Below are positions 29,260-54,800 of a stretch of 64,000 nucleotides of DNA, in pieces (within the stretch, counting starts at the first letter, position 1; each line of letters opens with the position of its first letter). The position numbers and the translations under genes are program-made. The stretch lies in assembly GCA_021513695.1 (NCBI GenBank), contig CP084166.1, forward strand, positions 2,624,001-2,688,000, given 5' to 3'. The notes beneath the pieces were generated by a model that saw only the letters and a program-made list of their open reading frames with translations, was not told the origin of the DNA and made no database searches. Source of the DNA: Candidatus Heimdallarchaeum aukensis. GTDB lineage: Archaea > Asgardarchaeota > Heimdallarchaeia > Heimdallarchaeales > Heimdallarchaeaceae.

Positions 29260-29262
29260 AAA

Positions 29263-31772: not shown

Positions 31773-31777
31773 GAATA

Positions 31778-32242
31778 ATGAGTACATCAAAGCAAGAACA
31801 AGAATCAGGTATAAAAAACCCAGATCCTAAGATTGTCCTTTTCTTATGCCGATGGTGTTCAGGAAAGGGAGCAGATCTAGCAGGAACGTCAAGATTAAGT
31901 TATCCTCCCAATGTTTTACCAATAATGGTAAATTGTACATCAAGAATTGATCCAAGATTTGTAGTAGAAGCTTTTCTTGATGGAGCTGATGGTGTTCTAG
32001 TGACTGGCTGTCACTTTGGTGATTGTCACTATAAGACTGGTAATTACAAAGCATATAGACGTCTTTCGCTAGTCGCAAAGTTGTTAAAACAAGTTGGGGT
32101 AAATCCTAAGAGATTTAGATTGACTTGGATATCAGCTACAGAAGCAGCAAAATTCGTAGAAGTGACTACAGAGATGGTAAATGATCTGAAAAAACTTCCT
32201 CCTTACTGGAGAAATGGAAATGGAGGTAATACCAATGAATAA
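31778..32242 (+). CDS. mvhD: Methyl-viologen-reducing hydrogenase delta subunit
   Basis: ILFLCRWCSGKGADLAG...VTGCHFGDCHY, the MvhD/FlpD family Cys pattern. The ATG at 31778 lies downstream of the track's GTG. Confidence 0.8.
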   Translation: MSTSKQEQESGIKNPDPKIVLFLCRWCSGKGADLAGTSRLSYPPNVLPIMVNCTSRIDPRFVVEAFLDGADGVLVTGCHFGDCHYKTGNYKAYRRLSLVAKLLKQVGVNPKRFRLTWISATEAAKFVEVTTEMVNDLKKLPPYWRNGNGGNTNE

Positions 32243-33233
32243 ATTAAAGGTTGCAGTGGCTCTTGGCGCAACTTGTGCAGGTTGTGACGTGGCTATCTTA
32301 GATTTGAATGAAAAAATACTAGATGTTATAGAGATAGTAGATTTTGTTTTCTGGCCAACAGCTATGGATTTCAAGCTTGAAGATCTAAAGGCATTAAAAG
32401 ATGGTGAAGTAGACGTAGGTTTATACCATGGAGCTATAGGTACAGAAGAAGATGAAGAAATAGCAAAAATATTAAGAAAGAAGTCGAAAGTAGTAGTGGC
32501 CTTTGGAGCTTGTGCTAATTTTGGTGGGATACCAAGTCTAACAAATATGCCTTATGAATCAAAAATATTCGATGTGGTTTATAAGGAAAGTCCATCTACT
32601 TCAAATCCTGAAGGAACTGTACCTCTAAAAGAAACAGAGGTAGAAGGAACAAAGTTGACTTTACCTGGAATTAGAAAAAGAGCAGATTCTTTGAATAGTG
32701 TTATCGATGTAGATTATTACGTTCCAGGCTGTCCTCCTATGGTTCCTTTGATAGAACAAGTGGTAGACATTTTGAGAGTTTTTGTTGAAAAAGGAACTTT
32801 ACCTCCTAAAGGAGCTGTTATCGCTGGGCAAGATACACTATGTAAGGAATGCGGAAGAACTAAACCAGAAACCATCTCTTACACAGAGTTTCTCTCTCCA
32901 CAAGAAGTGAAAGAGATTGACCCTGACCTTTGTCTTCTATCACAAGGAATTTTGTGTTTAGGACCAGCAACACGTTCTGGTTGTGGAGGATTATGCACAA
33001 GCATGAATGTTGGTTGTAGAGGATGTTTAGGACCAACAGATAAAGTTGATGATCATGGTCTAAAAATGATTTCAGCTCTAACATCACTTTTGGACGTAGA
33101 GCATGAAGAAGAGTATACAGAAGAGGAACTAGATAAATTAATAGAAAAAATCCCAGACCCATTAGGAACATTTTATCGATTTACTTATGGAGTCTCCATG
33201 ATCTCTAAATTACATCCTGATATGGAGGAATAA
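32235..33233 (+). CDS. mvhG: [NiFe] hydrogenase small subunit (F420-non-reducing, Mvh-type)
   Basis: VAVALGATCAGCDVAILD proximal-cluster Cys motif and further Cys clusters. GGAGGT SD 7 nt upstream of the ATG at 32235. The track ORF starts at an in-frame ATG at 32214. Confidence 0.8.
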   Translation: MNKLKVAVALGATCAGCDVAILDLNEKILDVIEIVDFVFWPTAMDFKLEDLKALKDGEVDVGLYHGAIGTEEDEEIAKILRKKSKVVVAFGACANFGGIPSLTNMPYESKIFDVVYKESPSTSNPEGTVPLKETEVEGTKLTLPGIRKRADSLNSVIDVDYYVPGCPPMVPLIEQVVDILRVFVEKGTLPPKGAVIAGQDTLCKECGRTKPETISYTEFLSPQEVKEIDPDLCLLSQGILCLGPATRSGCGGLCTSMNVGCRGCLGPTDKVDDHGLKMISALTSLLDVEHEEEYTEEELDKLIEKIPDPLGTFYRFTYGVSMISKLHPDMEE

Positions 33234-33235
33234 AA

Positions 33236-34723
33236 ATGAATCAAAAATTAAATCCAAATATCGTGACTATTGAGCCAGTCACAAGATTAGAAGGATTAGC
33301 AAAAATAACAGTACTTCTTAATGATGAAGGAAATGTAAAAGATGCTTTTTATCAAGTAGTAGAACTCAGAGGTTTTGAGCGTTTTGTTCAAGGAAGACCA
33401 ATTGAGGAAGTATTGAGAATCACACCAAGAATATGTGGTGTATGCCCCATACCTCATCATCTTGCACCAGCAAAAGCAGCAGATAGGGTATATGGGGTCG
33501 ACCCTCCTAAAACTGCAAAATTATTAAGAGAAATGCTAGCTTTGGGACATATTGTTCATAGCCATATTTTGCATTTCTATGCTTTTGCTCTTCCTGATTT
33601 TGTACTAGGAGAAAAGAAAGAACCAGGAACGCATAACATAATTGGTATAGCAAAAGCATTTCCTGATGTGGCGAAAGCTGCCATTAAAGCAAGAGGAGAT
33701 GCCCAAAAAATACAAGCAATGATTGGTGCAAAAGCAACTCATCCTGTTACTGTAATTCCAGGAGGAATAAGTAAAGGAGTAACGAAGGAAGATACAGAAA
33801 AGATATTAGAAATGAGCAAGAATATCGTTGAATTCGGTAAACTGGGTCTTAAGGTCTTTGAAGATTTAGTAGTTAAAAATAAAGATCAAATGGATCTTAT
33901 AAACAGTGACGCCTATCAGATGGATACCTATTATATGTCAATTGTAGGCCCCGATAATACGCTCGATTTCTATAATAGTCAAACAGTTAGAGTAATTGAC
34001 AGTAAAGGAAAAGAATTTGCAAAATTTGAAGCAGAAGATTATTTAGACCATTTAGATGAACATGTTGAACCATGGACATATCTCAAGTTCCCCTATTTGA
34101 AAAAGGTAGGTTGGAAGGGACTTGTTGATGGACCGGATAGTGGTATGTATAGAGTAAATGCTTTAGCACGATTGAACGTTATAGATAAGATAACAACACC
34201 TCTCGCCCAAGAAGCAATGGAAATTATGTATGAAGGTCTAGGTGGAAAACCTGCTCATCACACTTTAGGTTTTAACTGGGCTAGGTTAGTGGAAATACTA
34301 TACAGCGGTGAGAGAATGGTTGAACTAGCTGAAGATCCTGACTTTTATGGTACAAAGTTCAGAGAACAGCTAACCAAGGATATGATTACAGGTGAAGGGG
34401 TGGGAGCCATAGAAGCACCAAGAGGAACTTTATATCATCACTATAAGACTGATAAAGAAGGAAAAGTAACCAAAGCTAATATCATAGTAGCAACCACCAA
34501 CAATAATGCTGCGATTTGTTTAAGTGTGAAAAAAGCCGCTCAAGAAATGATTAAAAACGGTCAGTATAATGAGGATGGCTTAAATAAAATAGAGATGGCT
34601 TTTAGAGCTTATGACCCTTGTTTAGCATGTGCTACCCACGCCATGGTTGGACAAATGCCACTGAAAGTAGAAATATATGATTCTAAGAAAAATAAGATTA
34701 GAGAGTTGACACGTAAACTATGA
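33236..34723 (+). CDS. mvhA: [NiFe] hydrogenase large subunit (group 3c, Mvh-type)
   Basis: N-terminal RICGVCPIPHH (RxCGxC) and C-terminal DPCLACATH (DPCxxCxxH) nickel-binding motifs. A C-terminal extension after the His is consistent with protease processing. Confidence 0.85.
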   Translation: MNQKLNPNIVTIEPVTRLEGLAKITVLLNDEGNVKDAFYQVVELRGFERFVQGRPIEEVLRITPRICGVCPIPHHLAPAKAADRVYGVDPPKTAKLLREMLALGHIVHSHILHFYAFALPDFVLGEKKEPGTHNIIGIAKAFPDVAKAAIKARGDAQKIQAMIGAKATHPVTVIPGGISKGVTKEDTEKILEMSKNIVEFGKLGLKVFEDLVVKNKDQMDLINSDAYQMDTYYMSIVGPDNTLDFYNSQTVRVIDSKGKEFAKFEAEDYLDHLDEHVEPWTYLKFPYLKKVGWKGLVDGPDSGMYRVNALARLNVIDKITTPLAQEAMEIMYEGLGGKPAHHTLGFNWARLVEILYSGERMVELAEDPDFYGTKFREQLTKDMITGEGVGAIEAPRGTLYHHYKTDKEGKVTKANIIVATTNNNAAICLSVKKAAQEMIKNGQYNEDGLNKIEMAFRAYDPCLACATHAMVGQMPLKVEIYDSKKNKIRELTRKL

Positions 34724-35226
34724 AAATAGCAATTATCGGCCTGGGAAACCCCATTGTTGGGGATGATGCTGTCGGAATAAGAGTCTTAGATTACATAAAA
34801 GAGAATAAGACTCTTCCTTCCTTTGTAGACATAATGGTCGATGTAAGCCTTTCTGGAATAGGTTTAGTTGAACTATTCAGAGGATATGACAAAGTGATAA
34901 TAATTGATTCTATGCAATCTAATCAATTTGAACCAGGTACAGTTCTAAGACTCAACCCTGACCAATTTGTAAGTGCATTACACGTTTCAGATTATCATAA
35001 TATGGACTTTTTTACTGCTTACGAATTCGGTAAAGAGATATATGATGATTTACCACCAAATGAACAAATTGTTATCCTCGGAATTGAGATTAATTATATT
35101 ACTGAATTTAGCGATCAGCTATCTCCAGAAATAAAGTCAAAATTTGATGATATTGTAAATGATGTTTATCAATTTATTAAAAAAGAAATAAATCAAGAGA
35201 AGGAGATTATACGCAATGTCCTTTGA
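34720..35226 (+). CDS. Hydrogenase maturation endopeptidase (HycI/HybD/FrhD family)
   Basis: IAIIGLGNPIVGDDAVGIRV N-terminal motif. 168 aa. ATGA overlap with mvhA. Confidence 0.7.
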   Translation: MKIAIIGLGNPIVGDDAVGIRVLDYIKENKTLPSFVDIMVDVSLSGIGLVELFRGYDKVIIIDSMQSNQFEPGTVLRLNPDQFVSALHVSDYHNMDFFTAYEFGKEIYDDLPPNEQIVILGIEINYITEFSDQLSPEIKSKFDDIVNDVYQFIKKEINQEKEIIRNVL

Positions 35227-35629
35227 ATATATAAAAATAGGAAAAGAAGAAAAAGAATTCATTAGTAAAATAGAAGATATCAGCGGACAGAATCTATATG
35301 CATGTTATCAATGTGGAAAATGTACCGCTGGATGTTCTTTTAGTAATCAGATGGATCTTACAGTAAACCAAGTTATTCATAGATTACAACTTGGGCAAAA
35401 AGAAAAAGTGCTGAGTGCAAAGAGTCCTTGGGTATGTGCGAGTTGTTTGACTTGTACAGTTAGATGCCCACGAGATATTGACGTAGCTGCAATAATGGAG
35501 TCAGTAAGAGAATACATTCTACGTTATGAACCTGAGAGAATAGAAAGAATGAAAGTTACAGGAGAAAAAGCTAAAAACTTGCCTAACATTGCCCTCGTAG
35601 GTAGTTTTAGGAAGAATACTGAATTATAA
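35216..35629 (+). CDS. hdrC: Heterodisulfide reductase subunit C-like (2x[4Fe-4S])
   Basis: CYQCGKCTAGCSF and CASCLTCTVRCP motifs. Confidence 0.7.
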   Translation: MSFEYIKIGKEEKEFISKIEDISGQNLYACYQCGKCTAGCSFSNQMDLTVNQVIHRLQLGQKEKVLSAKSPWVCASCLTCTVRCPRDIDVAAIMESVREYILRYEPERIERMKVTGEKAKNLPNIALVGSFRKNTEL

Positions 35630-35641
35630 TAGGTGAATTAA

Positions 35642-36532
35642 ATGAAATATTCATATTTTCCAGGATGTAATCTCAAAACAAATGCAAAGGAATATGAACA
35701 TACAGCTGTTGAAGTTTCTAAAATATTAGATGCTGAACTTGTAGAAATGCCAGTGTTTAATTGCTGTGGGACAGTTCATAGTATGGCTTCAGATAATACT
35801 ATGAGGAGAATCGCCCCTGTACGTATTCTTTCAAGATCAGAAGAGCACCAAAAAGAGTTGGAAGATACAAATAACACAGTTGTAACTCTATGTTCCATGT
35901 GTAGTTCAACACTTAAAGTAGTAAATGAAGAAGTAAAAGAAGATGAAGAAATGCTACAGAAAATAAACTGGCAGCTAGAAAGAGATAACTTAAAATATTC
36001 TGGCCATTCGGAAGTCAAACACTATTTAGAAATACTTAGAGATGAAGTTGGTTTTGAAGAAATTGTTAAAAAGGTTAAAAAACAACTTAAAGGAATGAAA
36101 GTTGCTTCTTATTACGGTTGCATGCTGTTACACCCAGATAAAGCTAAAATTGATGACAGCGAAACACCAACAGTGATGGAAACCCTTACCCTTGCACTCG
36201 GAGCAGAAGTAGTTGATTGGCCTTATTTTAAAACTTGTTGCGGTTCTTACCATGTAGTAGACAAAGAAGATATCGTAAACAATCAAATTCTAAAAATAAC
36301 GGAGGGTGCTAAAAAAAGAGGAGCTAATGCTATAATTACTGCTTGTCCTTTATGTGCCTATAATCTTGATAGTCAGCAAGTATTTTTACAGAAAAAAGGA
36401 ATAATAAAAGAAACTATACCTATCTTCTACTTTACTCAACTTATGGCAATAGCTCTAGGAATAAAATTAGAAAATTTTGAAGATCATCATGTAGATCCTA
36501 AACCTTTACTAAAAAGTCTAGGATTAATTTAA
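35642..36532 (+). CDS. hdrB: Heterodisulfide reductase subunit B-like (two CCG domains)
   Basis: PGC...NCCGT and YYGC...CCGS...CPLC arrangement characteristic of the HdrB/GlpC/SdhE CCG domain. Confidence 0.75.
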   Translation: MKYSYFPGCNLKTNAKEYEHTAVEVSKILDAELVEMPVFNCCGTVHSMASDNTMRRIAPVRILSRSEEHQKELEDTNNTVVTLCSMCSSTLKVVNEEVKEDEEMLQKINWQLERDNLKYSGHSEVKHYLEILRDEVGFEEIVKKVKKQLKGMKVASYYGCMLLHPDKAKIDDSETPTVMETLTLALGAEVVDWPYFKTCCGSYHVVDKEDIVNNQILKITEGAKKRGANAIITACPLCAYNLDSQQVFLQKKGIIKETIPIFYFTQLMAIALGIKLENFEDHHVDPKPLLKSLGLI

Positions 36533-36549
36533 AAAAAAGAGGAATAAAA

Positions 36550-37272
36550 ATGGCAAAAGCAATATCAATGAGAGAAAAAAAGGAAAAACTTGACACAGTA
36601 ACCATATATATTATGGGTCAAGGATACAAAGTTCCTTCTTCTTTAACCATAATGAAAGCAATGGAATATGCTGGTTTTAAACTTAAAAGAGGAGTCGGTT
36701 GTCGTGCAGGTTTTTGTGGAGCATGTGCAACCGTTTATAGAAAATTAGGTGATTACAAAATATATGCTAACTTAGCATGTCAAACTAAAGTCGAAGATGG
36801 GATGTATCTCACACAATTACCTTTTGTTCCTGCTAATAAAGCAGAATACAATCTTGACGAGATTAAACCTTCAGCTTCAACAATGCTCCGTTTCTATCCA
36901 GAAATAGCAAGATGCTTAAGCTGTAATGCTTGTTCAAGAGTGTGCCCACAAGATATACAAGTAATGGACTATGTTCAATACAGCTTGCAAGGGCAAATAG
37001 AAAAAGCAGCAGAACTAGCTTTTGATTGTATTCAATGCGGTCTTTGCGCAATTCGTTGCCCAGCAGAGATTCCTCAATATCATGTGGCGACATTGGCACG
37101 AAGATTACATGGTAAATATCATATGATTGCTCCTGATACTCTAGAACAAAGAGTAAAGGAAATAGAAGAAGGAAAATACGAAAAAGGATTTGAAGAGTTG
37201 ATGTCTCTATCTGAAGAAGAATTGAAGAAACGATACGTTGCAAGAGACTTTATTGATCAGAAAAAGGCGTGA
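36550..37272 (+). CDS. Succinate dehydrogenase/fumarate reductase iron-sulfur subunit-like protein (2Fe-2S plus 2x[4Fe-4S])
   Basis: GCRAGFCGACA (plant-ferredoxin-like cluster as in SdhB), then CLSCNACSRVCP and CIQCGLCAIRCP. Confidence 0.65.
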   Translation: MAKAISMREKKEKLDTVTIYIMGQGYKVPSSLTIMKAMEYAGFKLKRGVGCRAGFCGACATVYRKLGDYKIYANLACQTKVEDGMYLTQLPFVPANKAEYNLDEIKPSASTMLRFYPEIARCLSCNACSRVCPQDIQVMDYVQYSLQGQIEKAAELAFDCIQCGLCAIRCPAEIPQYHVATLARRLHGKYHMIAPDTLEQRVKEIEEGKYEKGFEELMSLSEEELKKRYVARDFIDQKKA

Positions 37273-37277
37273 GAAAA

Positions 37278-38936
37278 ATGATTAGAGGATATCCAGAAAG
37301 TATGAGAAAAAGTATTGACAAAGTCAATAAAACAAGAGATAAGAGAATCGACCAAATTATGAAAGATTTGACTCTTGAAGAACGTGAGAAAGTATTAAAG
37401 GAATTTCACCCTGATTATAATCCAGCATATAAAAGAACTATAAGTTGGGGACAAAATAAAGGCGATTATGTTCCTAATGAAGTCGCAGATATACTGGAAT
37501 CATACCCAATCTATGATCCAGATGAGATAGATTTAAGTCAAATAGATTACGATGTTGGAATATTAATTATTGGTGCAGGAGGAGCTGGAACAGCTGCTGC
37601 TTTATGGTCTGTTTATTCTGGAGTGCCAAATGATAAGATCCTTCTAACAACTAAATTAAGGCTGGGAGACTGTAATACAGTTATGGCACAAGGAGGGATA
37701 CAAGCTGCTGATAGACCAGAAGATTCACCTTTAATTCATTATTTAGATGCTATGGGTGGAGGACACTTCAAAAATAAACCAGAGTTAGTAAAAGCACTTG
37801 TTTCAGATGGTCCCAAAATAATCAAATGGCATAAAGAACTAGGTTTAATGTACGATCAGAATGAAGATGGAAGTTTTGTAGAAAATGCTGGAGGAGGAAC
37901 ATCTAGAAACAGAATGCACTGCGCAAAAGATTATACAGGAATGGAAATTTTCAGAAATCTAAAAGATGAAGTTATTAACAATGAGATACCTTTATTGGAA
38001 TTTTCACCTGCAGTAGAATTGCTAAAAGATGAAAATGGAAGAGTAGCTGGTGCATTGTTATATAATCTAGAAACAAAAGAATATTCCGTCGTAAGAGCAA
38101 AAACAACCATTTTAACAACAGGAGGTTTTGGAAGATTACACATCGCAGGATTTGCAACAACAAATCACTATGGGGCAACAGGAGACGGAATAGTTATGGC
38201 TTATAGAGCAGGAGCTAAACTAAGAGATTTAGACTCAACACAGTTCCACCCAACAGGAGCAGCTTTCCCTGAACAAATAGTAGGTCTGTTAATTACTGAA
38301 AAAGTAAGAAGTTTAGGAGCACAAGTTTTAGGAAAGAATGGAGAACAAATCTGCTATCCACTAGAACCAAGAGATGTAGAGGCTGCTTCAATAATAAGAG
38401 TAACAAAAAGTACAGATAATTATGTTGAAACTCCAACAGGAATGAGAGGAGTCTGGTTAGATAGTCCATTAATTGAAGAAATCAGAGGAAAGGGAACAAT
38501 TGATAAGAATCTTGCTGCAATGAAAAGAATGTTTGCAAGGTTTGATATTGACATGACAGAAGATCCCATACTTGTTCATCCAACCCTTCATTATCAGAAT
38601 GGAGGAGTGGAACTCGATGAAAATGGATATACTTCTGTACCAGGTTTACTAGGCGCAGGTGAAATAAGCGGAGGAGTACATGGAAAGAATCGTCTTATGG
38701 GTAACTCTCTGCTTGAGGTCAATGTTTTCGGTAGACGAGCAGGTATAACTGCTGCTAAAGAATATAAACGAGGTAAAAAACCAGGCAAACTTACTTTATC
38801 ACATGTAAAGAAAACTATTGAGCAATTAGATGCTCTAAACATTAAGAAAAAACGCTTTTCACCTATCATTCTTCCAGAATATCGTAGTGAAGCAGTAAGA
38901 GACAGATTAATTCAACTATTTGAATCTAGTCTCTAA
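37278..38936 (+). CDS. Fumarate reductase/succinate dehydrogenase flavoprotein-family FAD oxidoreductase (TfrA/L-aspartate-oxidase-like), probably non-covalent FAD
   Basis: GILIIGAGGAGTAAAL dinucleotide fold. CNTVMAQGG sits where SdhA has the His that binds FAD covalently (Cys here). HYQNGGV active-site region. ~90-aa N-terminal extension. The ATG at 37278 lies downstream of the track's GTG. Confidence 0.75.
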   Translation: MIRGYPESMRKSIDKVNKTRDKRIDQIMKDLTLEEREKVLKEFHPDYNPAYKRTISWGQNKGDYVPNEVADILESYPIYDPDEIDLSQIDYDVGILIIGAGGAGTAAALWSVYSGVPNDKILLTTKLRLGDCNTVMAQGGIQAADRPEDSPLIHYLDAMGGGHFKNKPELVKALVSDGPKIIKWHKELGLMYDQNEDGSFVENAGGGTSRNRMHCAKDYTGMEIFRNLKDEVINNEIPLLEFSPAVELLKDENGRVAGALLYNLETKEYSVVRAKTTILTTGGFGRLHIAGFATTNHYGATGDGIVMAYRAGAKLRDLDSTQFHPTGAAFPEQIVGLLITEKVRSLGAQVLGKNGEQICYPLEPRDVEAASIIRVTKSTDNYVETPTGMRGVWLDSPLIEEIRGKGTIDKNLAAMKRMFARFDIDMTEDPILVHPTLHYQNGGVELDENGYTSVPGLLGAGEISGGVHGKNRLMGNSLLEVNVFGRRAGITAAKEYKRGKKPGKLTLSHVKKTIEQLDALNIKKKRFSPIILPEYRSEAVRDRLIQLFESSL

Positions 38937-41394: not shown

Positions 41395-42801
41395 TTAGAT
41401 AAAATCTCCCGTTTCTATTTTCTGTGGGAGGTAGAAGTTTGTAATAAATTGTGGGTCACGTGCATTTAATGCTTGTATTTCTGCTTTATAACCTGTATTT
41501 ATTAGGATTTCAAGTTGTTCTTGCCATTTTGGTTTTCTCTTTACGAACTCTTCTTCAAGCATTAACTTTGATCTTCTTATGTCTTTTTGAGTCATTTTGA
41601 TTAGTGCTTCTCTAGGAATATCAAATCCACTTTCAGGTTTTAGATCACTTGGGAGCAAACCTAACCATTTAATATTTGGCACTGCAAGATGGGTTGATTC
41701 GAAACTAAGAGCTTTACTTCCAACGCTATATACTCTCATGATTTCGAATCCGTAAGGGTCAGCATCCATAATGGCAAGAATAGGTAATTGTAAGTCATCA
41801 TTTATTTTCTTTAGAAACTGTCTTGTTGCCATGTCAGGTTGACCTTTAGCTGTAACTAAAATGCTTGGTACATAATCGTAAAAATGGTCTTCTGCTAACC
41901 TGTTAAAAATAGCATCTTTTTCAATAACTAAACAAAATTCAGCATCACTTTCTAAATCTTCGATGTCATCTATATTTGGTGAAATAGCTTTTCCTGAACC
42001 GATAGCTCTACAATCTATAAGATCACCCTTTTCCTTGAATTGTAACTTTCCTACAACAATACCTTTAGACGATGCACTAACATTTAGTGAAGTCCTCGTA
42101 GCTTGTATCATTGCTCCTAAATCTTCAATAAGAGAGTCTGATACTGCTTGTTTCTTAAACGCATTCACATTCATGTAGAAAATATCTCTTTTTGTACTGT
42201 GAATATCACGTGATAGTATGTCATGAAGAAGTCTCATTAATATTGACATTTGTTCAATCGTGCTTACAGAGGATAAACTCCTAAATTGGCGTTCTATCAT
42301 TTGTCTACCAATAAGTACTAATTCTTGTTCTTCATCAAAACCAATATTTCTCTTTCCTCTTGAAGGAATTTTAAAACTAGCTTCATCAGGTTTGTTAAGT
42401 GCTTCATTCAAAAATAATAATGCTGCTTCAACAATTTTATTTTTAGCTTTTTCCGAAGACATTGTTTCTACATTAGTTACACCATAAGGTAACTCATAAT
42501 CCTGCAATAAAGTAAGTTCGTTTCTAAGTTTCCTTATTTTATCAACTGGAACTTTTCTTTTTATTTCAATTCTCATTAATTCTTTCTTAAGAGGATAATT
42601 ACCTAAGGTTTTACCTTTCTCTAGAGGATACCACTTCTTTCCGCTTCTCAAAAAGAGTACAAAAGATCCTTTTTTAAGTTCAAATTCTTCTTGTAATATT
42701 TGAAATAATTCATTTATCTGAATACTGTTATCAAAACTCATTTTTACTTCAGTTGAAGGCAATATTGTTGCATTTTTTACTAAAAAATTATAGTTTACCA
42801 T
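41395..42801 (-). CDS. top6A: DNA topoisomerase VI subunit A (Spo11/Top6A family)
   Basis: Winged-helix region with the RDIFY tyrosine, and the Toprim domain CLVIEKDAIF...ILVTAKGQPDMATRQFL...LPILAIMDADPYGFEIM. Starts 9 nt after the top6B stop with a GGTGG SD. Confidence 0.85.
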   Translation of the reverse strand: MVNYNFLVKNATILPSTEVKMSFDNSIQINELFQILQEEFELKKGSFVLFLRSGKKWYPLEKGKTLGNYPLKKELMRIEIKRKVPVDKIRKLRNELTLLQDYELPYGVTNVETMSSEKAKNKIVEAALLFLNEALNKPDEASFKIPSRGKRNIGFDEEQELVLIGRQMIERQFRSLSSVSTIEQMSILMRLLHDILSRDIHSTKRDIFYMNVNAFKKQAVSDSLIEDLGAMIQATRTSLNVSASSKGIVVGKLQFKEKGDLIDCRAIGSGKAISPNIDDIEDLESDAEFCLVIEKDAIFNRLAEDHFYDYVPSILVTAKGQPDMATRQFLKKINDDLQLPILAIMDADPYGFEIMRVYSVGSKALSFESTHLAVPNIKWLGLLPSDLKPESGFDIPREALIKMTQKDIRRSKLMLEEEFVKRKPKWQEQLEILINTGYKAEIQALNARDPQFITNFYLPQKIETGDFI

Positions 42802-42810
42802 TTTTCCACC

Positions 42811-45800
42811 TCATTTTGTACTCCTTTTTTTGGTTTCAATTTTTGTATCAGCTGAAATTTCATCTAAAGTTGTTTGTTTTGTTCGCTTTGAAGTTGTTGT
42901 TTTCTTTGTTGTTGTACTTGGTCTCTTTGTTTTAGTAGTCGTTGTTTTCTTTGTTGTTGTACTTGGTCTCTTTGTTTTAGTAGTCGTTGTTTTCTTTGTT
43001 GTTGTACTTGGTCTCTTTGCTTTGGTAGTCGTTGTTTTTACAAAAGGAATTGTCTGTTTGATCTTCTTTATATCATTATAAGTCATCTCTAGCTTTCCTT
43101 CAAGCTGAGATGTCGGATAAGCAATAAATTCTCCAATTGTATTAATTCCAAGTGAGTTCAACTTATTTCGTATTTGCTGTTTAACATCTAATTTTTCTAT
43201 TGGCTCTTCTATTAACTTTAGTAATTTTTGAACATTTTTGTTTTTGAAAATATCTTTTCTCTTCGTACGATTATCAGCAAATATCAACTCTTCAAACGAA
43301 GATATCCCTATTTCTTTTAATTTTGATATAATCTCACTGCTCATAAATGGTGTACTTTTCACTATTTGCGTTTTACCCTTCTTTGCAATTTTTAGAGATT
43401 GAGGAGTTAAAGTTGCAAAATAGTTTCTTAACTGCCTTTCTGTTATATTAGTAATTTCAGTCAGTTCGTTAATTTTTGTATTAAAAACATCCCAGAGAGA
43501 ATACTTCTGTTTATGGTATAATTTAAAGATACTGTTTGGTTTATCCTGCATTAGTGCATAGAATGAGTAAATTGGGTATGAAAGAAGTTCTTTTAATGTG
43601 GATATCTGTCTGATTGATAACTCTGTTTGTTCTTTAATTCTCTTATCAGAAACTGATAAATGTATAATGTGGGAATACCCACCGTTTTCCAATATGGATT
43701 TTTCAGTATCTGAAAATAGACCTAAATCTTTAATCCTATAGCTATTTAGTTCTAATTGCTCTTTCACTTTAGTCATGTTAAGAGAGTTAAGAAGTTCAGT
43801 AAATTCTGCACGTTGTTTTTCTGTAAATTTAATCTGTAAATCATCTATATTTTGTAGGAAGAAAAGATCATAAACTTGTTCATAACCTCTTTTTGCTAGT
43901 TGAAAAAGTATATTCTTTTGACGTATAAATAATGCTAATGATGCTCTAAAACAAGAAAGAACATCTTTTACTTTCATGGATAAGTCGCTGATATTTTTCT
44001 CTTCAAACAAAGCAATTAGTTCACCTAATGAATTTATATCATTTTCATTTAGCTCGTTAATTATTTCTTTATCGTTTACAAAATCTATAAGTTTAGAATT
44101 GCTTTGAGATGCTAATGAATCTAGATCATGGAACGGAATTTGAGATAAAAGGTTTTTAAGGACAGTTATGTTTGAAGATTTATTTAATAATAGTAAATCA
44201 TAAACTGTTTTTGTATTACTTTTTAGTAGAAGCCTAAATGTTTCCTTACTCTCAAAGACAAGTGGAAGAGAGTAAATTTTTTGTTCAATTCTTAAACGGA
44301 GTTTTTCCGTGATCTTCCATCTCTTTGAAGTTTTTGATTTTGATACAATATTAAACACGTAAGCCTCTTCTATAGAGAAAATGTGACCTTGACTTAAAAC
44401 ATCTAATTCAGTTTTATCCAAAATTGTTTCAGGAATGGGGGTTAACTTAGATGCTAGAGTACGTAATGTTTCTAGTGATAGATTTCGAATCTGACGTATT
44501 AGTCTATTATCGTCGATTATCTGACTTAACTGGTATCTAGGTTTTAAAATTAAATCTCCTATTGTTAAGTTGCCATATTGTTTGAATTTCTCTTTATTTT
44601 CAAAACTTTCATTGACTAGCAAAATAACATGCCTATTTAGAAATTGTAAGTATTCATTAAAGTGTAAAGTTATGGTCTCTGGGAAAGAACTTGTAATTTT
44701 GTCAAATTGCTTTTTATCATATTTCTCCAAGAGAAGTAAGGATTCAAGGGTATATTGGACTTTTAGTTCATCTTTTTCAGGAAGATTCAACTTTTCTTCG
44801 AATTTGGTTGGTTTTGAGAAAATAAATGAGTAAATATCAAGTAGTCTCTTGGATACTTGAGAATTTACTTTTAGAGAATCATGATGTATATTGAAGAAAA
44901 CTAATTGTTGAAAACTTAAGTCTGGGAGTTTTTCGTCAAAATATCGCGAAGAGAGTTTTTGTAAAAGTCCAATTTTTGTTCTTAATGAAGGTGAAAGGTT
45001 AGAAACAACATCAGTGTTTTCAAAGAGATCAAGATAATTCTTAATACCATTTTCTCTCAATTCAGCAATATCAAAATCTTGTAGAACAATGTTTGTTTTT
45101 AGAGCAGGGGGGTTGCTTATTCTAGAAATAGTAATCTTACTAAGAAAAGTGTCAACTTCACTAATGTTTGTGCTTATAATTTTTGCAAGAGCTGGCTTAG
45201 ATAACAAAAGCATTTCTTGTAGAGTACTTACTTTGGATAAAAGTTTTAACCAATTTTCGAGAGGAAGTTGTGGGAAAGAAATCAGATAAATAGATTTGTT
45301 TAATATCTTTTGAACATTATTTCGTAATTTACTTCTCAATTTACAGTGTTTTTTTGATAAATCATAAACCAAATCGTCAATAACTGTATAATATTTCAGT
45401 AATTTTTTCTTTGTTTCACTATCAAACAGCATAATATTGGAAAGTTGAACTCTTTTATCTCTCAATTTTTTAATTGTTTTAACATTCAAAGTTGAGAGAA
45501 CATGATTAACTTTCTCAAGTTGTTTTTCTGATAAGAATGAAGAATATGAAATAGGTTTAATTAGTAAATCCTTTAGTGTTTCGATTTTATGTTCATTCAG
45601 TTTTTCTACTTCTTTTTCAGTGAAATCTGTTATTATAGAGACAGAACTGTTAAGGAGGTTTAGAATCTCTAATCCTGTTTTAGTAAGAAACTCTTTGTTC
45701 ATGTATAAAACAGAAATAAAATCAATGATATTTGAGATCTCTGGAATTTCAATGTTTTTGCTGAATAAGTTTTTTGAATTAATAGTACCAAGAAAATCTT

Positions 45801-48800
45801 TTGTCTTTAACGTAAGAGATAATGTTTTCTTTTTATCTTTAATCAGATTACTAATTATGGTGTTATAATCACCAAAGCTGACTAGTTGATCGTTTTTAAC
45901 AAGATCTCTGATGGTGAAAAGATTGTTGTCAAAGTATTTTGTTTCAATCTCTTCAAATTTTAAGGAGTTAATAGAGCTTAAGAATAGGATTGATGTATCT
46001 AAAATTTGTTTTATTTTTGTTCTTATTTTTTCTATCTTTTTAATATCATAAAGCCAGTTGTATATTGAATTCTCTTCTAAATCTGAAAAACTATAGAATC
46101 CATAAGATAACAAAGTAGATTTTTCTTTTTCACTAAGAAATGGTAAATCTACAAAATGATTTGGCTTATCTTTTTCAATTGTTTTCTTGATTTTATCAAT
46201 CTTTATTGATGAGCGTAGTTTCAATATTTGATCAAGTTTAATCCTTGATTCTTTTGCGACTGTTTTATACGGAATAAGCAGTAGATCTGCGATAGTGTAT
46301 GTTCCACCTTTTTTAAGGTTAGTTTCTATTTTCTCTTCTAGTCCTAAATATCGAATATTGGCTAGTAAATATGGGCTAATTTCTGCAAATATGCTCTTAT
46401 CTTTTAGATTAACATCTCCAAGTAATTCTTGATAAGATAAGTACCCAAGTTTCATTGCTTTTTCTTCATATGAACCTAAAGGAGGAATAAAACTTTCAAG
46501 ATGTAGATTTTTTAACATTGATAGACTTGATAAAATTTCATCAACCATTGCATCATCTAGATTTTGGATAGAGGAAATAACATCTATAATGTAAACTAAC
46601 TTCTTGTTATAACAAGATTTTATTGTATCTAATGTCAATATAGGTAGATTGTTTATGTTTCTACTTAATTTCATTCTAATATCTTTAATTTCTTCAATGT
46701 ATGAATCTGGTAGGCTTAAGAAAAACTCTTCAGGGAAGTAATATAGATATTCAATTGAGAAAACTCCCAAACTGTATAGCTTTTGAACTAATGACTTATT
46801 TAACTTTAAGTTTGCAATATCAAGAGTAGAGAATTGAAGGGAAGATAGATTCCTAATGAAAAGAGAATTGTTCTCTTTTATGGCTTTATCCAATTTTGGG
46901 AGAAGGGTTTCCCACAGGTGAATAGGAATATGAAGGTAGTCATAATATGTTTTTTTATTTTTTAAAGATTCATTAATATTTTTTGTTGAAATCCCGAGTA
47001 TACGCTCAATTGTCTTTATTGGTGTAAAGAGAATAGGTATATTCACTATCAACTTTTCTTTTTCATCTTTGTTTATTTCTAATTGATCTACATCATGATA
47101 AAATAGTTGAATTAAAGAGTAAATCTCATTTTCATTAAGATATTCGATTGTAGAAACCTCGGGTTTTTTGATTGTTTTTGGACTAGTACCTTCTTTAGCT
47201 TCACGTTTTTTAATAAGTGGAAGTTTACCCTCTTTTGTTAGTTCTTTTTCAGTTAAGGATGGTAAAAGGTTTAAGTCGATTCCATAGAGTTTAAGTTCAG
47301 AAACAATATTTCTTTTACTAATCTGTAATTTAATAGTGTTTATCTCTTTATACTCTATTTCAAATAATTTACCCAAAGAAACTGATGGAATAGATAAAAA
47401 TTCAAGTATAGTGTTAATCTTATTTTCAAAGAGAATAGAGTTTTGTTGCAATGAAAGTGAACTTAAGAAGGAAATTGGAGTTGTTCCAAACAATGAGAGA
47501 GTCTTTTTTATTGATGATAAATTCTTATCTTCTGAACTGTAATCCTGTAAACAAAGAAGTTGATCTAAATACTCAATATTAATCTTTTTTAGATATAGCT
47601 TCTGTTGTTTGGACAAAAATTTTACATCACGTAACTTAATTGCCCATTTAGGTATTTGAAAATCAGATAAAGAACTTACTACATATTCTGCTAGTTCTAT
47701 GTCAATATTGTCTGGAGGAAGAAGTAATAAATCAAGAATAAGTTTTTTATCTTCCTTCATCAAATTTCTCAAAAACTCAAGCTGATCTATTTGAGAAAAT
47801 TTATCTAACCAAATAATTGGATATTTTACCATACTTGTAAGAGAATTAGAATTACTAAAGAGAATTTGAGAACTTATGACAAATGGTTGAGGAAGCAGAT
47901 CTAGTAGATTAATAACATCGGGAGAGGTCTTAATGTCTAGTTTATCACTTTTATTTGATAGAATGTCCAGATGATCTTTGGGAATTAAGTTAACTAATTT
48001 TTCTTTAGAAAATTCTTTTACAAAACGGATAATCTCACTTCTAGCATTTGATGGAATAGTTCTCTTTTCTTCAGAGCTAAGAGTAAGAAGTTCAATAATA
48101 TTTTTAACTCCATTTTTCCATAAATCAAGTTTGACGTCTAAACTCATGTCTGAGATAGAAAAAATATTTAGACATAAACCATAGATTAGTTCTTCAAGTT
48201 TAGCAATACTACTCGCTTTTTCTATTTTTTCACTTTCTGAGAATATAAGCAAGTATTCTGGTACCAACCCAAAGATATCTTCAAATGATGCTTTTGAAAG
48301 GTTGAATTTAAAGTCTGTGAGTGTACTTATTAATTCTTTATCTTCTTCAAGAATAGGTATGCCTGAACTAAGGCTTATGTTTCCCTTTCTTTTATCTTTT
48401 AACTCTTCAGGAATGGAATTGAATATCTTCTTAAGATCTTTTTCTCTAACTATAAAGAGGTCAATAACTCGTAGAATGCGGTTTTTTGCAAGACTACGTT
48501 TAATAAAGCGTGAAAGGTTTGAAATTCTGAAGACTGAAGAGTTACAAAGAGAGAGAAAATTATCAATATTTTCCTTAAATTCTTCAGAAAATGATTTTAT
48601 TTGATAACAAAGACCATAAAGATCTTGAACTGTGTCCTTATTCAGTTTTTGTAAGCTAAGAAGATTTCTCTTTGACAATAACGCAAGAGATTCAAGTTTT
48701 ATTCCTTTTTCTTCAACTTCATTTAGTATTTTTTTAACTGAAATATTTTCTTTTATTTTGATAATTTCAGTTTCAGGTATGTCTAAAATTAATGATATCG

Positions 48801-51800
48801 TAGTGATGTCTTCTGTTAAGAAGGTGAGTATATCCCCGACGCCAGAATAAACAAGTTTTAACATTTGTTCTAACTCTAAATCCAAGAAGAATACAGATGA
48901 GAGATACAACTTTGCTTCTTTAAATACATTCATGTTCACTAGATATGGGTATGATTTTCTGATTTCAGACATTCTAGAAATGAAGTCTTGAATTGAATAA
49001 ATCCCTAATTCATGTAATTTTTCTACATATTCACTTGTTATTGATGGACAATTTTCTAGAGGAATTGCAAAACGAAGTCTTTTCTCTTTTAATTCATCTA
49101 AAGATAACAAGTCAAATATATGAAATTCATCATAAATAGGATTGTTTAGAATTTGTGATAATTGTCCTTTTTCAAAAAGAGACAAATCGATTACTGAGTG
49201 AATATCCTGTAATTCTAGTTTCTTTATTTCTTCAAAAGACAAGAAACTAAGAAAAGTTATTGAACCTGATAATATTTCTTTAAATTCTCTATATTTCTCT
49301 TGCTTTAAGATACTGGATGCACCCATTCTTACTCCAGCATAGTACAAAGTTTCTATGTCTGATATTCCTATATCTCGTAATTTAGAAATTTCAGTTTCCG
49401 TGATGAGAGAAGAAGGCATAATAGGGTGAGATCTTGCTTTGTGTAATTCAACAATTTCACTATAAGATAGATTTTCCTTTATTTCATTAATCCTTTTTTG
49501 TGTTTCATTAGATATTTCAGAAAGTTTTTTGGTTGGTGTTGAATAAAAGTCTATTAATGTTGTAATTGAAGATCTGCTAAGAGGAAGAGCAAGATTAACG
49601 TCCAAGTTTAGTGAAGAAATAGGAATAGACAAATCACCTATAAGTTTATCTAAACTATTTTCTTCACCTAGTTTGTTTTTAATTTCCAAGAGAGGAGAGT
49701 TCTCCTCGAATTCAAGTTCAAATAAGCTCCCTAAAGTAATTATAAAGTATTTATTCCTCATATCTTCACTTAAAAGATTGAGAAAAGGTGTAATTCCAAG
49801 TGGTAATTCAAAAACTGAACGAATAAGTGTAATGTTACATTTTTCAAAAGCTAATTGTCTTTCAAATTCGCTGAGGGTTTTTATCAAATCTGTGCTGGAA
49901 ATAACATCAAGTAATGTTAACTCTTCAATATCTTCCAGAATAGTAGAAAAGAAGTCTTTATTGTAAGCAGTTGCAGAAAGAAAATCAAAGTAGTGATAAG
50001 CTCTCAAGTCAATTAATTTAGAAGAATAGTCTGAAACAGTTCTAAATAGCGTTCTATCCGTTAAATCGCTATCTAATATGAATATTAAATGGTAAAGGTG
50101 GGTTATTTGGTTTTGATTAAAAATAGTCAAAGAATAATCTGAAATCTCCTGAAAAATCCGTAAAGGAAGTGATAATATTTTCTTTAATGTGAAAACTTTT
50201 CTCCAGATTGATGAGTTTCTGTCGATGAAAACTTCATCGGGACAGTAGAAAAGTTCTTGAATTGATTGAAATCCTTCATAACTGTAAATTGTTTCTCTAC
50301 TTAGCGTTCTTTGTTCATTTTTGTCAAAAAGTCTAGTTTCATATGCATAGATTGCTCGCGCCTCATATTCTTCTCTTATTCTCTGTGATGTTAAAATGTC
50401 AATTATTTCCTTTGTTTCTTTTGTTGTAATGTTTAGGATATTACTGAGTTTAACAGATGAAGTAGAAACGAAATCAACTATAGTTAATATACCCGCTTTT
50501 CTCAATTCTTCAGTTTGTGAAAAAGAGATATTTGGTAAGAAATAAACAGGGAGACTGAAAAAGTAAAAAATTTCACCAAGATCTAGACTTCTCTTAATAT
50601 TATCAAAACGTTCGTCGGGAATCCCTGTTCTTTCCATTAGAACTTTAGATGACGTAAGTAGAAAACCTAACAATGTATTTATTTTGTTTTTCTTTAAGAG
50701 CTTAATTATATCTGGATCTAACATGTCTGACAAGTGCTTAAATCGTAAATTTAGCACATTTTTTAAATTCTGAACTATCTCCCATGGAATTGTTCTTATT
50801 GCCCATTTTTCTTGCTGAGTAGAAAAGTATAGGTCCTCAATGGTAAAGATGTTGTTAGTTTCTAAAATTTCTACTATCGATGGTCTAAAGATATCAAGTT
50901 CAGAAATATCTGTTCCAGTTTCACTAATCCTGATATTTTTCTTGTATTTTTTAGCTTCTTCTAAATCAATTTTTAAAATAGAAGCGATTGTTTCATCACT
51001 AACAAGGAAAAAGTCAATGATTCTTCTGATTCCAGTTTTTCTTAGAGCATTCAGCTGTTCATGGGATAAGCTTGTTATTTCAATTTCTTCAATTTCTTCC
51101 TCTTGTTTTGTTTCTTCATTTAATATCTTCTTCTTTGTGGTTTTTTCCCAAGTAACTAGCGTCAGGGGAGAACGCAATAGTTTCTTGAATTTTTCAATTA
51201 CACCCCATTTTATTATGGGAGCACCAAAAGTGTAAGGGTGTGTTAAATAAAATAGCTGGTCTATAGAATTGTAACCAATAACAAGTAAAGAACGGATTTC
51301 TTCAGGTGAAAAACGTTCTGAATTTTCAAAATCAAAGGAGATTATTGATTCATACTTACCACTAGATACTTTCTCGTAGAATGGTTGTCCATCTCTATTT
51401 ACATCAAAATTGTTTATTAACTCATCAAAATTCTTCTTTGAAAAATTAAGTATCGTGCTTAATTCATCAAAACTGTAATTTAAAAATTGGTGCAGAGAGT
51501 AAATCTTTTTTGAAGCTAATACTTCATAATCTTTAAGTTTCAAGCTTTTTATACGAGTGATTGGTAATTGCAAAAACTGATAGAAATCAATTATTTCGTG
51601 AGATAACAAAACTTTTTCTGCAAACTCATCAGTATCTTTAAGATTTTTACTATTTATATTGTCGTAGAGTTCAAGTAAAATTTTTTTGTCTTTATTTTTT
51701 GAAATTTCTGTCTCAATAAATACAGGTGTAAGTTGAAGGAAATCTCTTATTGTATTTACATCCTTGGTTTTGAGCTTAAGAAGAGCATCATTCAATGACT

Positions 51801-54800
51801 TTGCTTTAGATTTTGTTGGGGCTAACTTTGCTAAAAATATTAGATCTTCATTCATGAATTCTCTAAAGTTATTCATCTTAGTTAAAAGATCTGAAATCGA
51901 CGGAAGTTCTTCTTCAATATAAAAGTAAAACAACTCTTGTATTGTTGTTTGTTGTTCATTGAATTGCTTAACCAATCTTGGAAAGTGTTTTTTTATTATT
52001 TTTAAATTTCCTTTGTATCTTTCTTTATTTTTTGTAATCTTGTTAGCAGATATACTTTGTTTTAGACGTATAATTTCTTGTTCGTTAAGGTTTAATACCA
52101 AAGAGAGTTCTTTATTACTCCATATTAGAAACCTGCCTATACAGTTTACTCCAATTTCATTCAAAACGTTAATTTTCTCGTTTAGTTCAGGAAAAGCAAA
52201 AATCAAGGGAGTTCGTAATAGTAAGTAATCTGAAACATATTGTTTCTTTGTTTGTTCATCTTTAAATTCAAAATTCTCTGGTTGAGAATATAGAATGTCC
52301 TCTACTGTATAAATTTCATATTTACTTGCTTTGTTCTTCAAAGATAGAAAGTTAGGAATGGGCGTACCTATCTTTTTCTTTATTCTTGCAATCTCGCTTT
52401 TTAATAAACCCATTTCGCGTAATTTTTTCGATGGTGTAATCAAGAATGATGTGGAAGTAAATATCTTGTTTTCTAGCAATTTTTCTTCAGCTTTTTCACT
52501 AATCACTTTTAAGTGTGATAGGTCAAGGTCTTTATTTACTTCATTAAGATGAGAAAGAATGCGAAACTTTGATTCTTCTAATAGACTATCAACAAAAACA
52601 CTTAGTTCTTTTTTCATTAACGTTCTTAATTTAGCGTTTGCATATTGTGCTAAGGTTTCTATATTCGCTGATTTAAGACTGTCTAGTATGTTTTTTCTTA
52701 TATTGTCATCTATGGTTGATATTAGTCCTAGTTTGTTAAGAGGGATAGATCTCTCGCTGTTAGCTAGAATAGTGAAAAATCTAGTATAAATAGAACGCTC
52801 TAATTCTTTGATTTCTAAAAGGTCTTTAGTTGGCGTTTTAAGAAAATTATCTATTGTCTCTATCTTTCTTCTATGAAAAGCATTTTTAGAATATCCATCT
52901 ATCCAATCAGGTTTCATTTTTGTAATGTTGACCTTTAGAAAATCAGGAAACTTTTCTGAAACATGTGAAAATACCTTTTTAACGTAATCAATCAACATTT
53001 CTGTTAAATCATTATCATATTTAAACGAAAAAGGCTCATTGAACTTATAAATAAAATCCTCTAACCCCTTAAACTTATTTGAAAAGTTGGGATAACTTGT
53101 TTTTATATAATTGAAATCTGGATACAGAAATTCTTCTTTTAACTCTGAATAATCAGACATAGTTTCTAAATTAAATTTAAATTCTTCGATAAAGATCGAC
53201 AACTCTACTGTTTCTTGGCCATCTTGAGATTTTGTAACTTCGTTAATTAGCTTAAATTTGTTATCTTCTATTAGACGTTCTACTAAACCTTCAACTAAAC
53301 GCAATTGTGTAGCTTCTGTAGCTAAATAATGATAGCTATTTTGAATCCATCTTTGATATAATGCTTCATTGAAACTACTACTAGTTCCTTGACGTGCAAA
53401 CCTCTTATCTATCATTTTATTTGTTAATGCTTTTAGTGGGAGTTCAGGGCTCAACTTAGACCTGTCTAGTTCATAAATTGTTCTTTGTTTTATTCTTGAA
53501 ACTTCTTTTTTTGAAAGATTCAAAATAGGAGCTAGTTCTGAAACAGGTATGGAAAGAAACTTTCCAATTGTTAAAATATCACTTTTAGCACAACTTTTCT
53601 TGTATTTATCAGGGCACCACACATTAAGTTCAAAAATGGGTGTCCCTAAAGGAACAAAATTTCTAATTTTCTTTTTTGCTCCGTGAGCTAGAGCTGCTGC
53701 AACTTTATATTTTTCTTTATTTATGTTTGTATAAACTATTTTTTCATTCTCTAAAATTCTTGCGAGGTTATCAATTACAACAGGTGCTGATCGTACAAAA
53801 CGGGATAATCGTGCATGTTCTCTTTTCCTTCTTTTTGCTCTACTAAGGAATGTTTTAAGTCTTCTACCAAGTTGTTGTAAAGCTAACCTAATCTCTTCTT
53901 CAATTTCTGGGACGGTTGAGATATACTCCTTACTCGTTTCAGGAAAAGGTATTTTTGTACTTACAATTGATACTGCAATCGCGAGAGGATCTGATTGTCT
54001 TGTAAGACCGTATTCACTCCAATTAAGCGAAGAAACTACTTTTGTAATAACGTCATTTCCCGCACCAAAAATTAAAGGAATTCTATTTGCATATCGATAA
54101 ATTATTTTGTTGTCGACTGACGTGCTTCCTTTTTGTTGAGCATATTTTGATACTCCCCCCCCATAACCTATTGCTGCTTCAACGATAAAAGGATGACCAG
54201 AATAAGCTTTTGGAGGACGAGAAATCGCTTCTACAAACTCTGGTTCAAGTTCTTTTTCTAAACCTTTTCTTAATCTTGCTGCTCCTAAAGGAGAAAGAGC
54301 ATCACCTTGTGGAGCATCAAATCTAAAGATTCTATCTCTTTTTCTTTTTATTTCTTTAGCCTCTTGGTAGGCTTTGATAAATCCTTCATGAACTATTCTT
54401 CTAATTTCTTTAGAAGTAAGGTCGCTAGGCTTTTTATTAGGGTCAATTTCTAAAATCTGAAAGAACTCTTCAGCTACTTCTTTTCTTACTCCCATAAAAT
54501 CTTTTGACAGAAAATCAACTAGATTTTCTGCAGAAGTAGCAGCAATTTTTGCTTTAAACTGAGTGATATCACATCCAAATGGGTGTAACTGAATTACTTT
54601 AGGAGGGTCGGGCATATCATCTACTACTTTTTGGAAAACTAATGTTTCACTTGTTCCTTCTTCATCTCCTGGAAGAACTACAGTAAAACTTGCATAGGGA
54701 GTAATTATAGCTAATTGTTTAAAATACTCCTTAATACTGTTCTTTGCTAGATTCCAAGCTCCAGTAAAAGTTATACTTATCTCAGTACCGCTAGTGTGCA

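Follow-up and report, generated by a model that had tools for sequence, protein, structure and literature searches.

A conserved eight-residue motif beside a length-variable, repeat-encoded polycationic linker in the tail of a giant Heimdallarchaeaceae topoisomerase VI B subunit

We analysed a 64,000-nt stretch of the genome of Candidatus Heimdallarchaeum aukensis (GCA_021513695.1, contig CP084166.1, positions 2,624,001-2,688,000 of the forward strand; the whole stretch is hereafter the window). Its minus strand encodes a giant B subunit of DNA topoisomerase VI (Top6B) whose basic C-terminal tail is partly built from 45-bp tandem repeats. The tail consists of three parts: a linker rich in K, T, S and P (or A), the motif KQTTLDEI, and a brief basic stretch that closes the protein. 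The 45-bp repeats belong to the variable linker alone; what is conserved is KQTTLDEI, which the original prediction had missed. On balance, we consider it probable that the tail acts as an electrostatic DNA tether and as a leash presenting a docking peptide, a reading in which we infer both the DNA binding and the partner.

The last 81 aa of Top6B have a pI of 11.3 and a charge of +20 and contain 41% T and 24% K, and Top6B is alone among the 38 open reading frames (ORFs) of the window in having a basic C-terminus. The hypervariable polycationic linker comprises aa 4108-4162 (42880-43044, minus strand), and its 55 residues include 18 K+R, no D+E, 31 S+T and two hydrophobic residues. It is followed by KQTTLDEI (aa 4163-4170; 42856-42879, minus strand) and by the short basic end SADTKIETKKRSTK (aa 4171-4184; 42814-42855, minus strand), whose translation closes with KKRSTK before the stop codon. 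The C-terminal ends of orthologs are K/S/T-rich stretches comparable to this one. AlphaFold2, run on aa 3885-4184 with 13 sequences, modelled aa 4112-4184 as coil without secondary structure, at a predicted local distance difference test score (pLDDT) of 31-40. Thus, the description of the tail as basic and low in complexity in the original prediction was upheld by its composition, and the tail is, in addition, predicted to be disordered.

The array itself lies at 42892-43038 on the minus strand, where Tandem Repeats Finder (TRF) reported 3.3 copies of a 45-bp unit encoding KTTTTK(A/T)KRPSTTTK (score 273, 97% matches, no indels). Its three full units occupy 42904-42948, 42949-42993 and 42994-43038. 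The last of these, which comes first in the protein, differs at two bases, one synonymous (ACC/ACT) and one that exchanges Ala and Thr (GCA/ACA). The array is in frame with top6B (coding sequence offset 12327, frame 0), 45 being a multiple of 3, and three such units at 97% identity cannot have arisen by chance. The original prediction had described three head-to-tail 45-bp repeats, the third with two mismatches, and an ORF ending in KKRSTK; TRF and the translation reproduced all of this, including the coordinates and the encoded peptide. It had also found no other tandem repeat at the nucleotide level in the window. This is true of long arrays of high identity, of which there is one, but not literally: TRF lists 74 rows for the window, and all the others are short or degenerate (score of at most 64). 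The next largest of these is an imperfect 12-21-nt periodicity at 25594-25735.

A 26-mer from the repeat unit, CCAAGTACAACAACAAAGAAAACAAC, had no exact match in the GTDB species-representative genomes or in the metagenomes of the Joint Genome Institute (JGI), so the window's organism is not represented at this locus in those collections. By these searches, the 45-bp unit is confined to the species-level lineage of the window. When a single 500-aa protein was used to search for related loci, the genome collection returned only Ca. Heimdallarchaeum endolithica PR6, which is ~92% identical to the window's organism at the amino acid level in this region, and the JGI metagenomes returned none.

We compared the tail among related genomes to assess whether the number of repeats varies between strains, as had been predicted, and found a clear length polymorphism. 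A contig from assembly GCA_054381415.1 (L001), which shares 99.2% nucleotide identity with the window over 20 kb, carries at least 6.2 units where the window carries 3.3, with the internal variants KKPS, KKAS and TTAK, and it stops inside the array at its position 20260. The complete genome of PR6 (CP084167.1) is a de novo Nanopore assembly (PMC8813620). At the same site it encodes a 176-aa linker, which TRF resolves into 26 copies of an 18-bp unit and 13 copies of a 42-bp unit and whose peptide units are KKTTT(A) and KKPSTTA. The 300 folded residues preceding the linker are 92% identical between the window and PR6, and 22 of the last 25 residues are identical; the linkers of 55 and 176 aa nevertheless differ about threefold in length. 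Among orthologs, the linker ranges from 48 to 176 aa, with most at 48-60 aa, so that the 55 aa of the window fall within the mode. The linker is a segment that lengthens and shortens fast, probably through replication slippage or unequal recombination.

A second prediction, that the array would trouble assemblers and that the true count might be higher, was likewise supported. In addition to L001, a 62.7-kb contig of a Logan assembly (SRR15988954; L003), which matches the window at 100% identity across 4 kb, stops at window position 42925, again inside the array. Because two independent short-read contigs end within the array, the count in the window is possibly too low, and 3.3 copies may be an underestimate, to be read as a lower bound. 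Top6B is consequently annotated as 'partial' in NCBI. These broken contigs are also what would be expected if the repeat, or its copy number, were an artefact of assembly, a proposal to which we give almost no credence: the array is seen in three assemblies, the internal variants of L001 mark distinct copies, a homologous and longer array is present in the Nanopore-based PR6 genome, and the tail is conserved across the family. A chimeric assembly was rejected on similar grounds, the tail being present in three assemblies plus the Nanopore genome. The existence of the repeat is secure, and doubt is limited to the exact count.

Wu et al. (PMC8813620) report that Heimdallarchaeum genomes are unusually rich in intragenic tandem repeats, and give 212 and 262 as the numbers of tandem repeats of CRISPR or intragenic type; the 45-bp array is one instance of this genus-wide abundance. 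That paper mentions neither topoisomerase VI nor this tail. Such a genomic background is what would be expected if the repeat region were neutral low-complexity filler, arising from slippage-prone A-rich DNA, with only the terminal motif, and perhaps the spacing it is given, being of consequence. The lack of sequence conservation in the linker, its threefold length range between congeners, and the Hodarchaeales Top6B proteins that manage without a tail would all fit such an explanation. The composition of the linker argues against it. In 14 Heimdallarchaeaceae sequences with an overall identity of 41-48% (92% in the case of PR6), the linkers cannot be aligned, but their net charge is still +23 to +37 per 100 aa. 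Only 7 of their 836 residues (0.8%) are acidic, compared with 117 (14%) expected from the body of the protein, and this depletion holds even though one transition suffices to turn Lys into Glu. Read across these sequences, charge density and the exclusion of acids are held by selection in the linker, while its sequence is free. The non-homologous tails of Kariarchaeaceae-type proteins are basic as well, and linker lengths cluster at 48-60 aa, which suggests a preferred length. Together, these observations make the neutral filler explanation quite unlikely.

The broader family gave a consistent picture. A homolog search over 5.8 billion proteins yielded 76 clusters of giant Top6B, all of at least 2,311 aa, with an Asgard label on every one that carries a source name. 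They fall into three size classes of ~4,200 aa (Heimdallarchaeaceae), ~3,500 aa (Kariarchaeaceae-type) and ~2,310 aa (Hodarchaeales). A polycationic low-complexity tail is present in every complete member of the ~4,200- and ~3,500-aa classes, with lengths of 33-283 aa, charges of +8 to +66 and 25-51% K+R; the possibility that the tail is strain-specific noise, which its absence from all orthologs would have suggested, can be set aside. Kariarchaeaceae-type tails share this basic character without sequence homology to those of Heimdallarchaeaceae. Several other clades have tandem repeats of their own in the tail, unrelated to those of the window (P0022, P0025, P0033, P0034 and P0076), such as (KKTTG)n, SSSKRSSSPKST repeats and KKAPPKKVTT repeats, which indicates that repeat expansion in the Top6B tail arose several times. 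We found no description in the searchable literature of a polycationic tail on a type IIB topoisomerase, or of a conserved terminal peptide.

Within the Heimdallarchaeaceae tails, KQTTLDEI is the one alignable island, with the consensus [KR]-Q-[TIM]-T-L-x-[DE]-hydrophobic. Its Q, T and L are invariant in 13/13 sequences and in PR6 (14/14 Heimdallarchaeaceae), the residue before Q is always K or R, position +5 is always acidic, and position +6 is hydrophobic in 12/13. The distance of the motif from the C-terminus is 21-35 aa in every sequence (21 in the window). In the flanking columns the majority residue reaches at most 54%, and shuffled tails produced the motif at a frequency of no more than 0.0005 (0.05%). 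Judged by this pattern of conservation, the motif is probably a docking peptide for a protein partner.

The sliding clamp PCNA is one potential partner. Genuine PCNA-interacting protein (PIP) motifs include QTSMTDFY of p21 and QATLFDFL of P. furiosus RFC-L, and in many of them position 3 is T and position 6 is acidic. Compared with the PIP template Q1-x-x-h4-x-x-a7-a8, the window motif has Q1 and L4 in place, and T3 and the acidic position 6 are present. Its setting is also PIP-like, being disordered (pLDDT <40), terminal and flanked by basic residues. The aromatics of positions 7 and 8 are lacking: position 7 is I, M, V or L (K in P0002) and position 8 is S, T, K, Q, G or A. The motif therefore shares with described PIP boxes (PMC3504372, PMC6881253) Gln 1, an aliphatic residue at 4, an acidic residue at 6, a disordered location near the C-terminus and positive flanks, and differs from them in the canonical aromatics 7 and 8, so that any such assignment is putative.

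These likenesses raise the alternative that the tail mainly tethers topoisomerase VI to the sliding clamp. KQTTLDEI would then be a degenerate PIP box by which PCNA recruits the enzyme at or behind replication forks to remove precatenanes, and the basic linker would mainly raise the affinity and reach of the PIP box. Beyond the matches at Q1 and L4, T3, the acidic position 6 and a hydrophobic position 7 in 12/13 sequences, this alternative is favoured by the place of the motif in a disordered, basic-flanked region near the C-terminus; PIP motifs lie mostly at extreme termini (PMC3504372). Closer PIP-like ends, in which position 7 can be F or Y, occur elsewhere in giant Top6B clades (RQKSLNAF in P0058/60/62, KQKSLDEY in P0075, SKINTFF in P0074 and EVDKFF in P0064/68). 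In Pyrococcus abyssi, co-immunoprecipitation of TopoVI with PCNA and RFC has been reported, and it has been proposed that factors may tether TopoVI to forks (PMC9665070). Against this, both defining aromatics are absent and the motif is missing from Kariarchaeaceae-type tails, and for these two reasons we did not file it as a PIP box. It is also unstructured in the AlphaFold2 model, though this is usual for unbound PIPs. We regard a tail that works mainly as a clamp tether as possible, with more doubt than confidence; it is compatible with DNA binding, and both can coexist. Among the classes that we can name, a degenerate PIP box is the best candidate for the motif, an assignment suggested by sequence likeness that we hold only tentatively.

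Searches of the neighbourhood did not add to this picture. No PCNA or known PCNA client was present among the 33 window ORFs scanned with Pfam (five ORFs at 32214-36532 lay outside the scan), and a PIP regular expression applied to the termini of all 38 window ORFs returned nothing relevant. Separately, we observed that the Hodarchaeales-type proteins P0035-P0057 have a common C-terminal peptide, R(L/V)RLRRKxDVxG(R/Q)LD(S/A)YM, which fits an h4-x-x-Y7-M8 PIP-like pattern; to judge by its sequence, it may correspond to the motif of Heimdallarchaeaceae.

The function of the tail has to be considered in the context of the protein that carries it. The top6B coding sequence (42811-55365, minus strand) comprises 4184 codons counted from the first GTG and ends in a TGA stop at 42811-42813; in P0001, a homolog 98% identical to it, the annotated start lies 3 codons later. 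It passed the curated equivalog models PRK04184 (470.8 bits; cutoff 274) and TIGR01052 (400.6 bits; cutoff 380.7) of NCBIfam, and its transducer matched Pfam Topo-VIb_trans at E 3.5e-57. The generic HATPase_c match was weak (aa 38-135, 21 bits, under its cutoff of 26.4). The catalytic core, from GHKL ATPase to transducer, spans aa 7-550 in PRK04184 (53716-55347, minus strand), with the transducer at aa 352-518. By the measure of these models, the host protein is a genuine DNA topoisomerase VI subunit B, in agreement with the original identification of the gene as a giant Top6B.

Some ~3,550 residues with weak Pfam matches to RAD51D_N and RNA_pol_A_CTD separate this core from the tail. Pfam, a self-profile, AlphaFold2 and Foldseek together delineated ~30 degenerate helix-hairpin-helix (HhH)-type modules, resembling the RpoA alpha C-terminal domain (CTD) and the RAD51 N-terminal domain (NTD), at aa 593-4102 (43060-53589, minus strand). 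The self-profile found 35 copies of a 34-38-aa module in Top6B, compared with 1-7 in each of 20 shuffles, and PF26169 (HHH_XRCC3_RpoA) is precomputed for P0001. The last module (aa 4069-4102; 43060-43161, minus strand; self-profile E 2.6e-13) adjoins the tail and is kept in all orthologs, in the form ..GI..hKEFhhYP...L..K..LSY..IK.LK.RLP. In the AlphaFold2 model, aa 3903-4111 (model residues 19-227) are all-helical at a pLDDT of ~90. Foldseek against the PDB superposed 53-56-aa pieces on the RAD51C/D NTD and the RNA polymerase alpha-CTD at a root-mean-square deviation of 1.4-2.7 A, with weak E values of 0.4-3 and a template modelling (TM) score of ~0.66 that is normalised to the small target; as these matches are consistent, we took them as support beside Pfam and the self-profile. 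A 4,184-aa Top6B with ~30 HhH-type modules over ~3,500 C-terminal aa is remarkable in itself. We found no description of a giant HhH-array Top6B in the searchable literature: Villain et al. credit Asgard Top6B only with a 'globular' C-terminal extension, and neither the papers on TopoVI evolution nor the Asgard replisome paper describes the HhH array or the tail.

With this architecture, the tether-and-leash reading can be stated more fully. The linker would extend the ~30-module HhH array as a non-specific electrostatic DNA tether; with this tether, the A2B2 enzyme would capture DNA more readily and stay longer on an AT-rich chromosome. The linker would also double as a flexible leash that offers the terminal motif to a protein partner. 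Non-specific DNA binding by the tail would be consistent with its conserved charge density and with the adjacent HhH module; that the tail influences processivity, that a partner exists and which protein it might be are likewise what we infer.

Several observations weigh against this proposal. The tail has neither classical S/TPKK motifs nor AT-hook GRP motifs in its translation, and a single TPKK is present in the tails of P0005-P0007. With ~30 HhH modules in place, the extra DNA affinity gained from 55 residues may be small. The threefold difference in linker length between congeners could mean that the linker is largely neutral filler. The ~2,310-aa Top6B of Hodarchaeales have no basic tail, ending in RLRRKxDVxGRLDSYM, and the tail is thus not needed for a giant Top6B as such. 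Finally, the nominal binomial P of ~3e-44 for the depletion of D+E is overstated, as it treats residues and lineages as independent despite their shared ancestry. Two more specific DNA-binding readings were rejected: an AT-hook, because the tail holds KRPS and KKPS with no G-R-P core, and an H1-type SPKK array, because the window tail contains none.

The abundance of Thr and Ser would also fit a tail that serves chiefly for regulation by modification. Its charge would then be neutralised by phosphorylation, which would release DNA in the style of histone H1 or the Top2 C-terminal domain, or else the residues would be O-glycosylated. The window linker is 56% Ser+Thr (31/55), and Asgard archaea encode eukaryote-like Ser/Thr kinases. 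The comparison of orthologs points in the opposite direction: there is no conserved kinase consensus, the Ser/Thr positions are not conserved, many Thr of the linker are Ala in PR6 (15% A), and other clades have P and A in place of S and T. Since Ala and Pro replace Ser and Thr, hydroxyl content is not what is conserved. O-linked modification, which had been suggested earlier, found no support, and O-glycosylation was rejected because Top6B is a cytoplasmic DNA enzyme; to our knowledge, archaeal O-glycosylation is restricted to secreted S-layer proteins, and we know of no precedent on a cytoplasmic DNA enzyme. We consider a mainly regulatory role through modification very unlikely.

DNA enzymes and chromatin proteins with disordered basic tails are already known, as are variable-number tandem repeats in coding sequence, and several systems resemble the Top6B tail in part. 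The C-terminal domain of histone H1, the tail of mycobacterial HupB and the C-terminal domain of eukaryotic Topo II are disordered, polycationic, S/T/P/A/K-rich tails beside a folded DNA-binding module. Like the window tail, they conserve composition and charge but not sequence; the window tail differs in its lack of S/TPKK or PAKK repeats and in its host protein, and nothing points to homology. As regards the setting of the tail, the nearest precedent is topoisomerase V of Methanopyrus kandleri. This type IC enzyme has 12 (HhH)2 domains, ~24 HhH motifs in <1,000 aa, and sequence-nonspecific DNA binding. There, too, a catalytic core is followed by a long tandem array of HhH motifs, whereas in the window protein, a type IIB B subunit, the modules extend over ~3,500 aa and a basic tail is added. 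Topoisomerase I (TopA) of the actinobacterium Streptomyces coelicolor likewise has a low-complexity, Lys-rich, repeat-built C-terminal tail, but is a type IA enzyme whose Lys/Ala/Pro-rich repeats end in acidic residues (PMC5714199). Compared with TopA, the window tail belongs to a type IIB ATPase subunit, is Lys/Thr-rich, follows a huge HhH array, contains a conserved Q-x-T-L-x-D, and has only putative DNA binding. The REC114-interacting C-terminus of eukaryotic TOPOVIBL and plant BIN4/RHL1 (PMC9665070) illustrate that the C-terminus of a B subunit can recruit partners and that TopoVI can gain extra DNA binding. The REC114-binding region is unrelated in sequence to the window tail, BIN4 and RHL1 are separate beta-rich proteins, and we detected no homology.

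Immediately downstream of top6B lies top6A (41395-42801, minus strand; 468 aa; Pfam TOP6A-Spo11_Toprim E 2.4e-59, TP6A_N E 3.6e-19). Its start is 9 nt from the top6B stop, an order shared with PR6 and L003, and the two genes are probably co-transcribed. A Shine-Dalgarno-like GGTGG (42806-42810, minus strand) is positioned between the two, the coding strand reading AAA TGA GGTGG AAAA ATG; the counterpart of this junction in PR6 is TAA GGTGT AAAAA ATG. We rejected the idea that the 45-bp repeats are a regulatory element of top6A, as they lie >100 nt upstream of its start and the ribosome-binding site follows the stop codon of top6B. In Top6A, curated models begin to match only at about residue 110, leaving an N-terminal extension of ~110 aa, which may be the Asgard/eukaryote-specific N-terminal helix region of PMC9665070. 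Directly upstream of top6B is a gene for a 978-aa LVIVD-repeat protein (55504-58440, minus strand) with a hydrophobic C-terminal segment followed by RKKK, and this neighbour is also found in L001.

Elsewhere in the window, two Arf/Ras-family small GTPases, typical Asgard eukaryotic-signature proteins, are encoded at 17895-18770 (plus strand; Arf E 3.2e-33) and 25852-26490 (minus strand; E 1.4e-10). A 260-aa protein with a CxxCxxCC metal-chelating domain (24991-25773, minus strand) begins with ~60 aa of highly acidic, E/K/Q-rich low-complexity sequence; the 12-21-nt periodic DNA noted above encodes this N-terminus and is the second most repetitive spot of the window. A long same-strand cluster at 26905-38936 (plus strand) includes subunits of 2-oxoacid:ferredoxin oxidoreductase (POR_N, TPP_enzyme_C, POR), FAD/FeS proteins, an MvhD/FlpD-like subunit and a FAD_binding_2 protein (ORFs at 32214-36532 were outside the scan).

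Two questions have been posed as open, namely what recruits topoisomerase VI to its substrates in the cell and what role the variable C-terminus of Top6B plays (PMC9348778, PMC9665070). Compared across relatives, the tail falls into a linker that expands freely and an 8-residue motif that stays fixed. For genome annotation, the consequence is practical: the array breaks short-read assemblies, so that Top6B will often be annotated as 'partial' in metagenome-assembled genomes of Heimdallarchaeaceae, and copy numbers there are untrustworthy. If the tail were only a generic basic appendage, it would be a modest addition to the lysine-rich tails of topoisomerases. The motif on its variable leash nonetheless provides a concrete, testable hypothesis for the recruitment of topoisomerase VI in the archaea closest to eukaryotes. 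In its boldest form, which the likeness to PIP boxes suggests and which we regard as rather unlikely, topoisomerase VI would be coupled to the replisome via its own B subunit, through a variable polycationic leash ending in a non-canonical clamp-binding peptide that docks PCNA or another fork component. If this were true, the tail would be an in-cis archaeal counterpart of the C-terminal domain of eukaryotic Topo II or of plant BIN4/RHL1, and it would place a giant HhH-array decatenase behind the replication fork in the archaeal family closest to eukaryotes.

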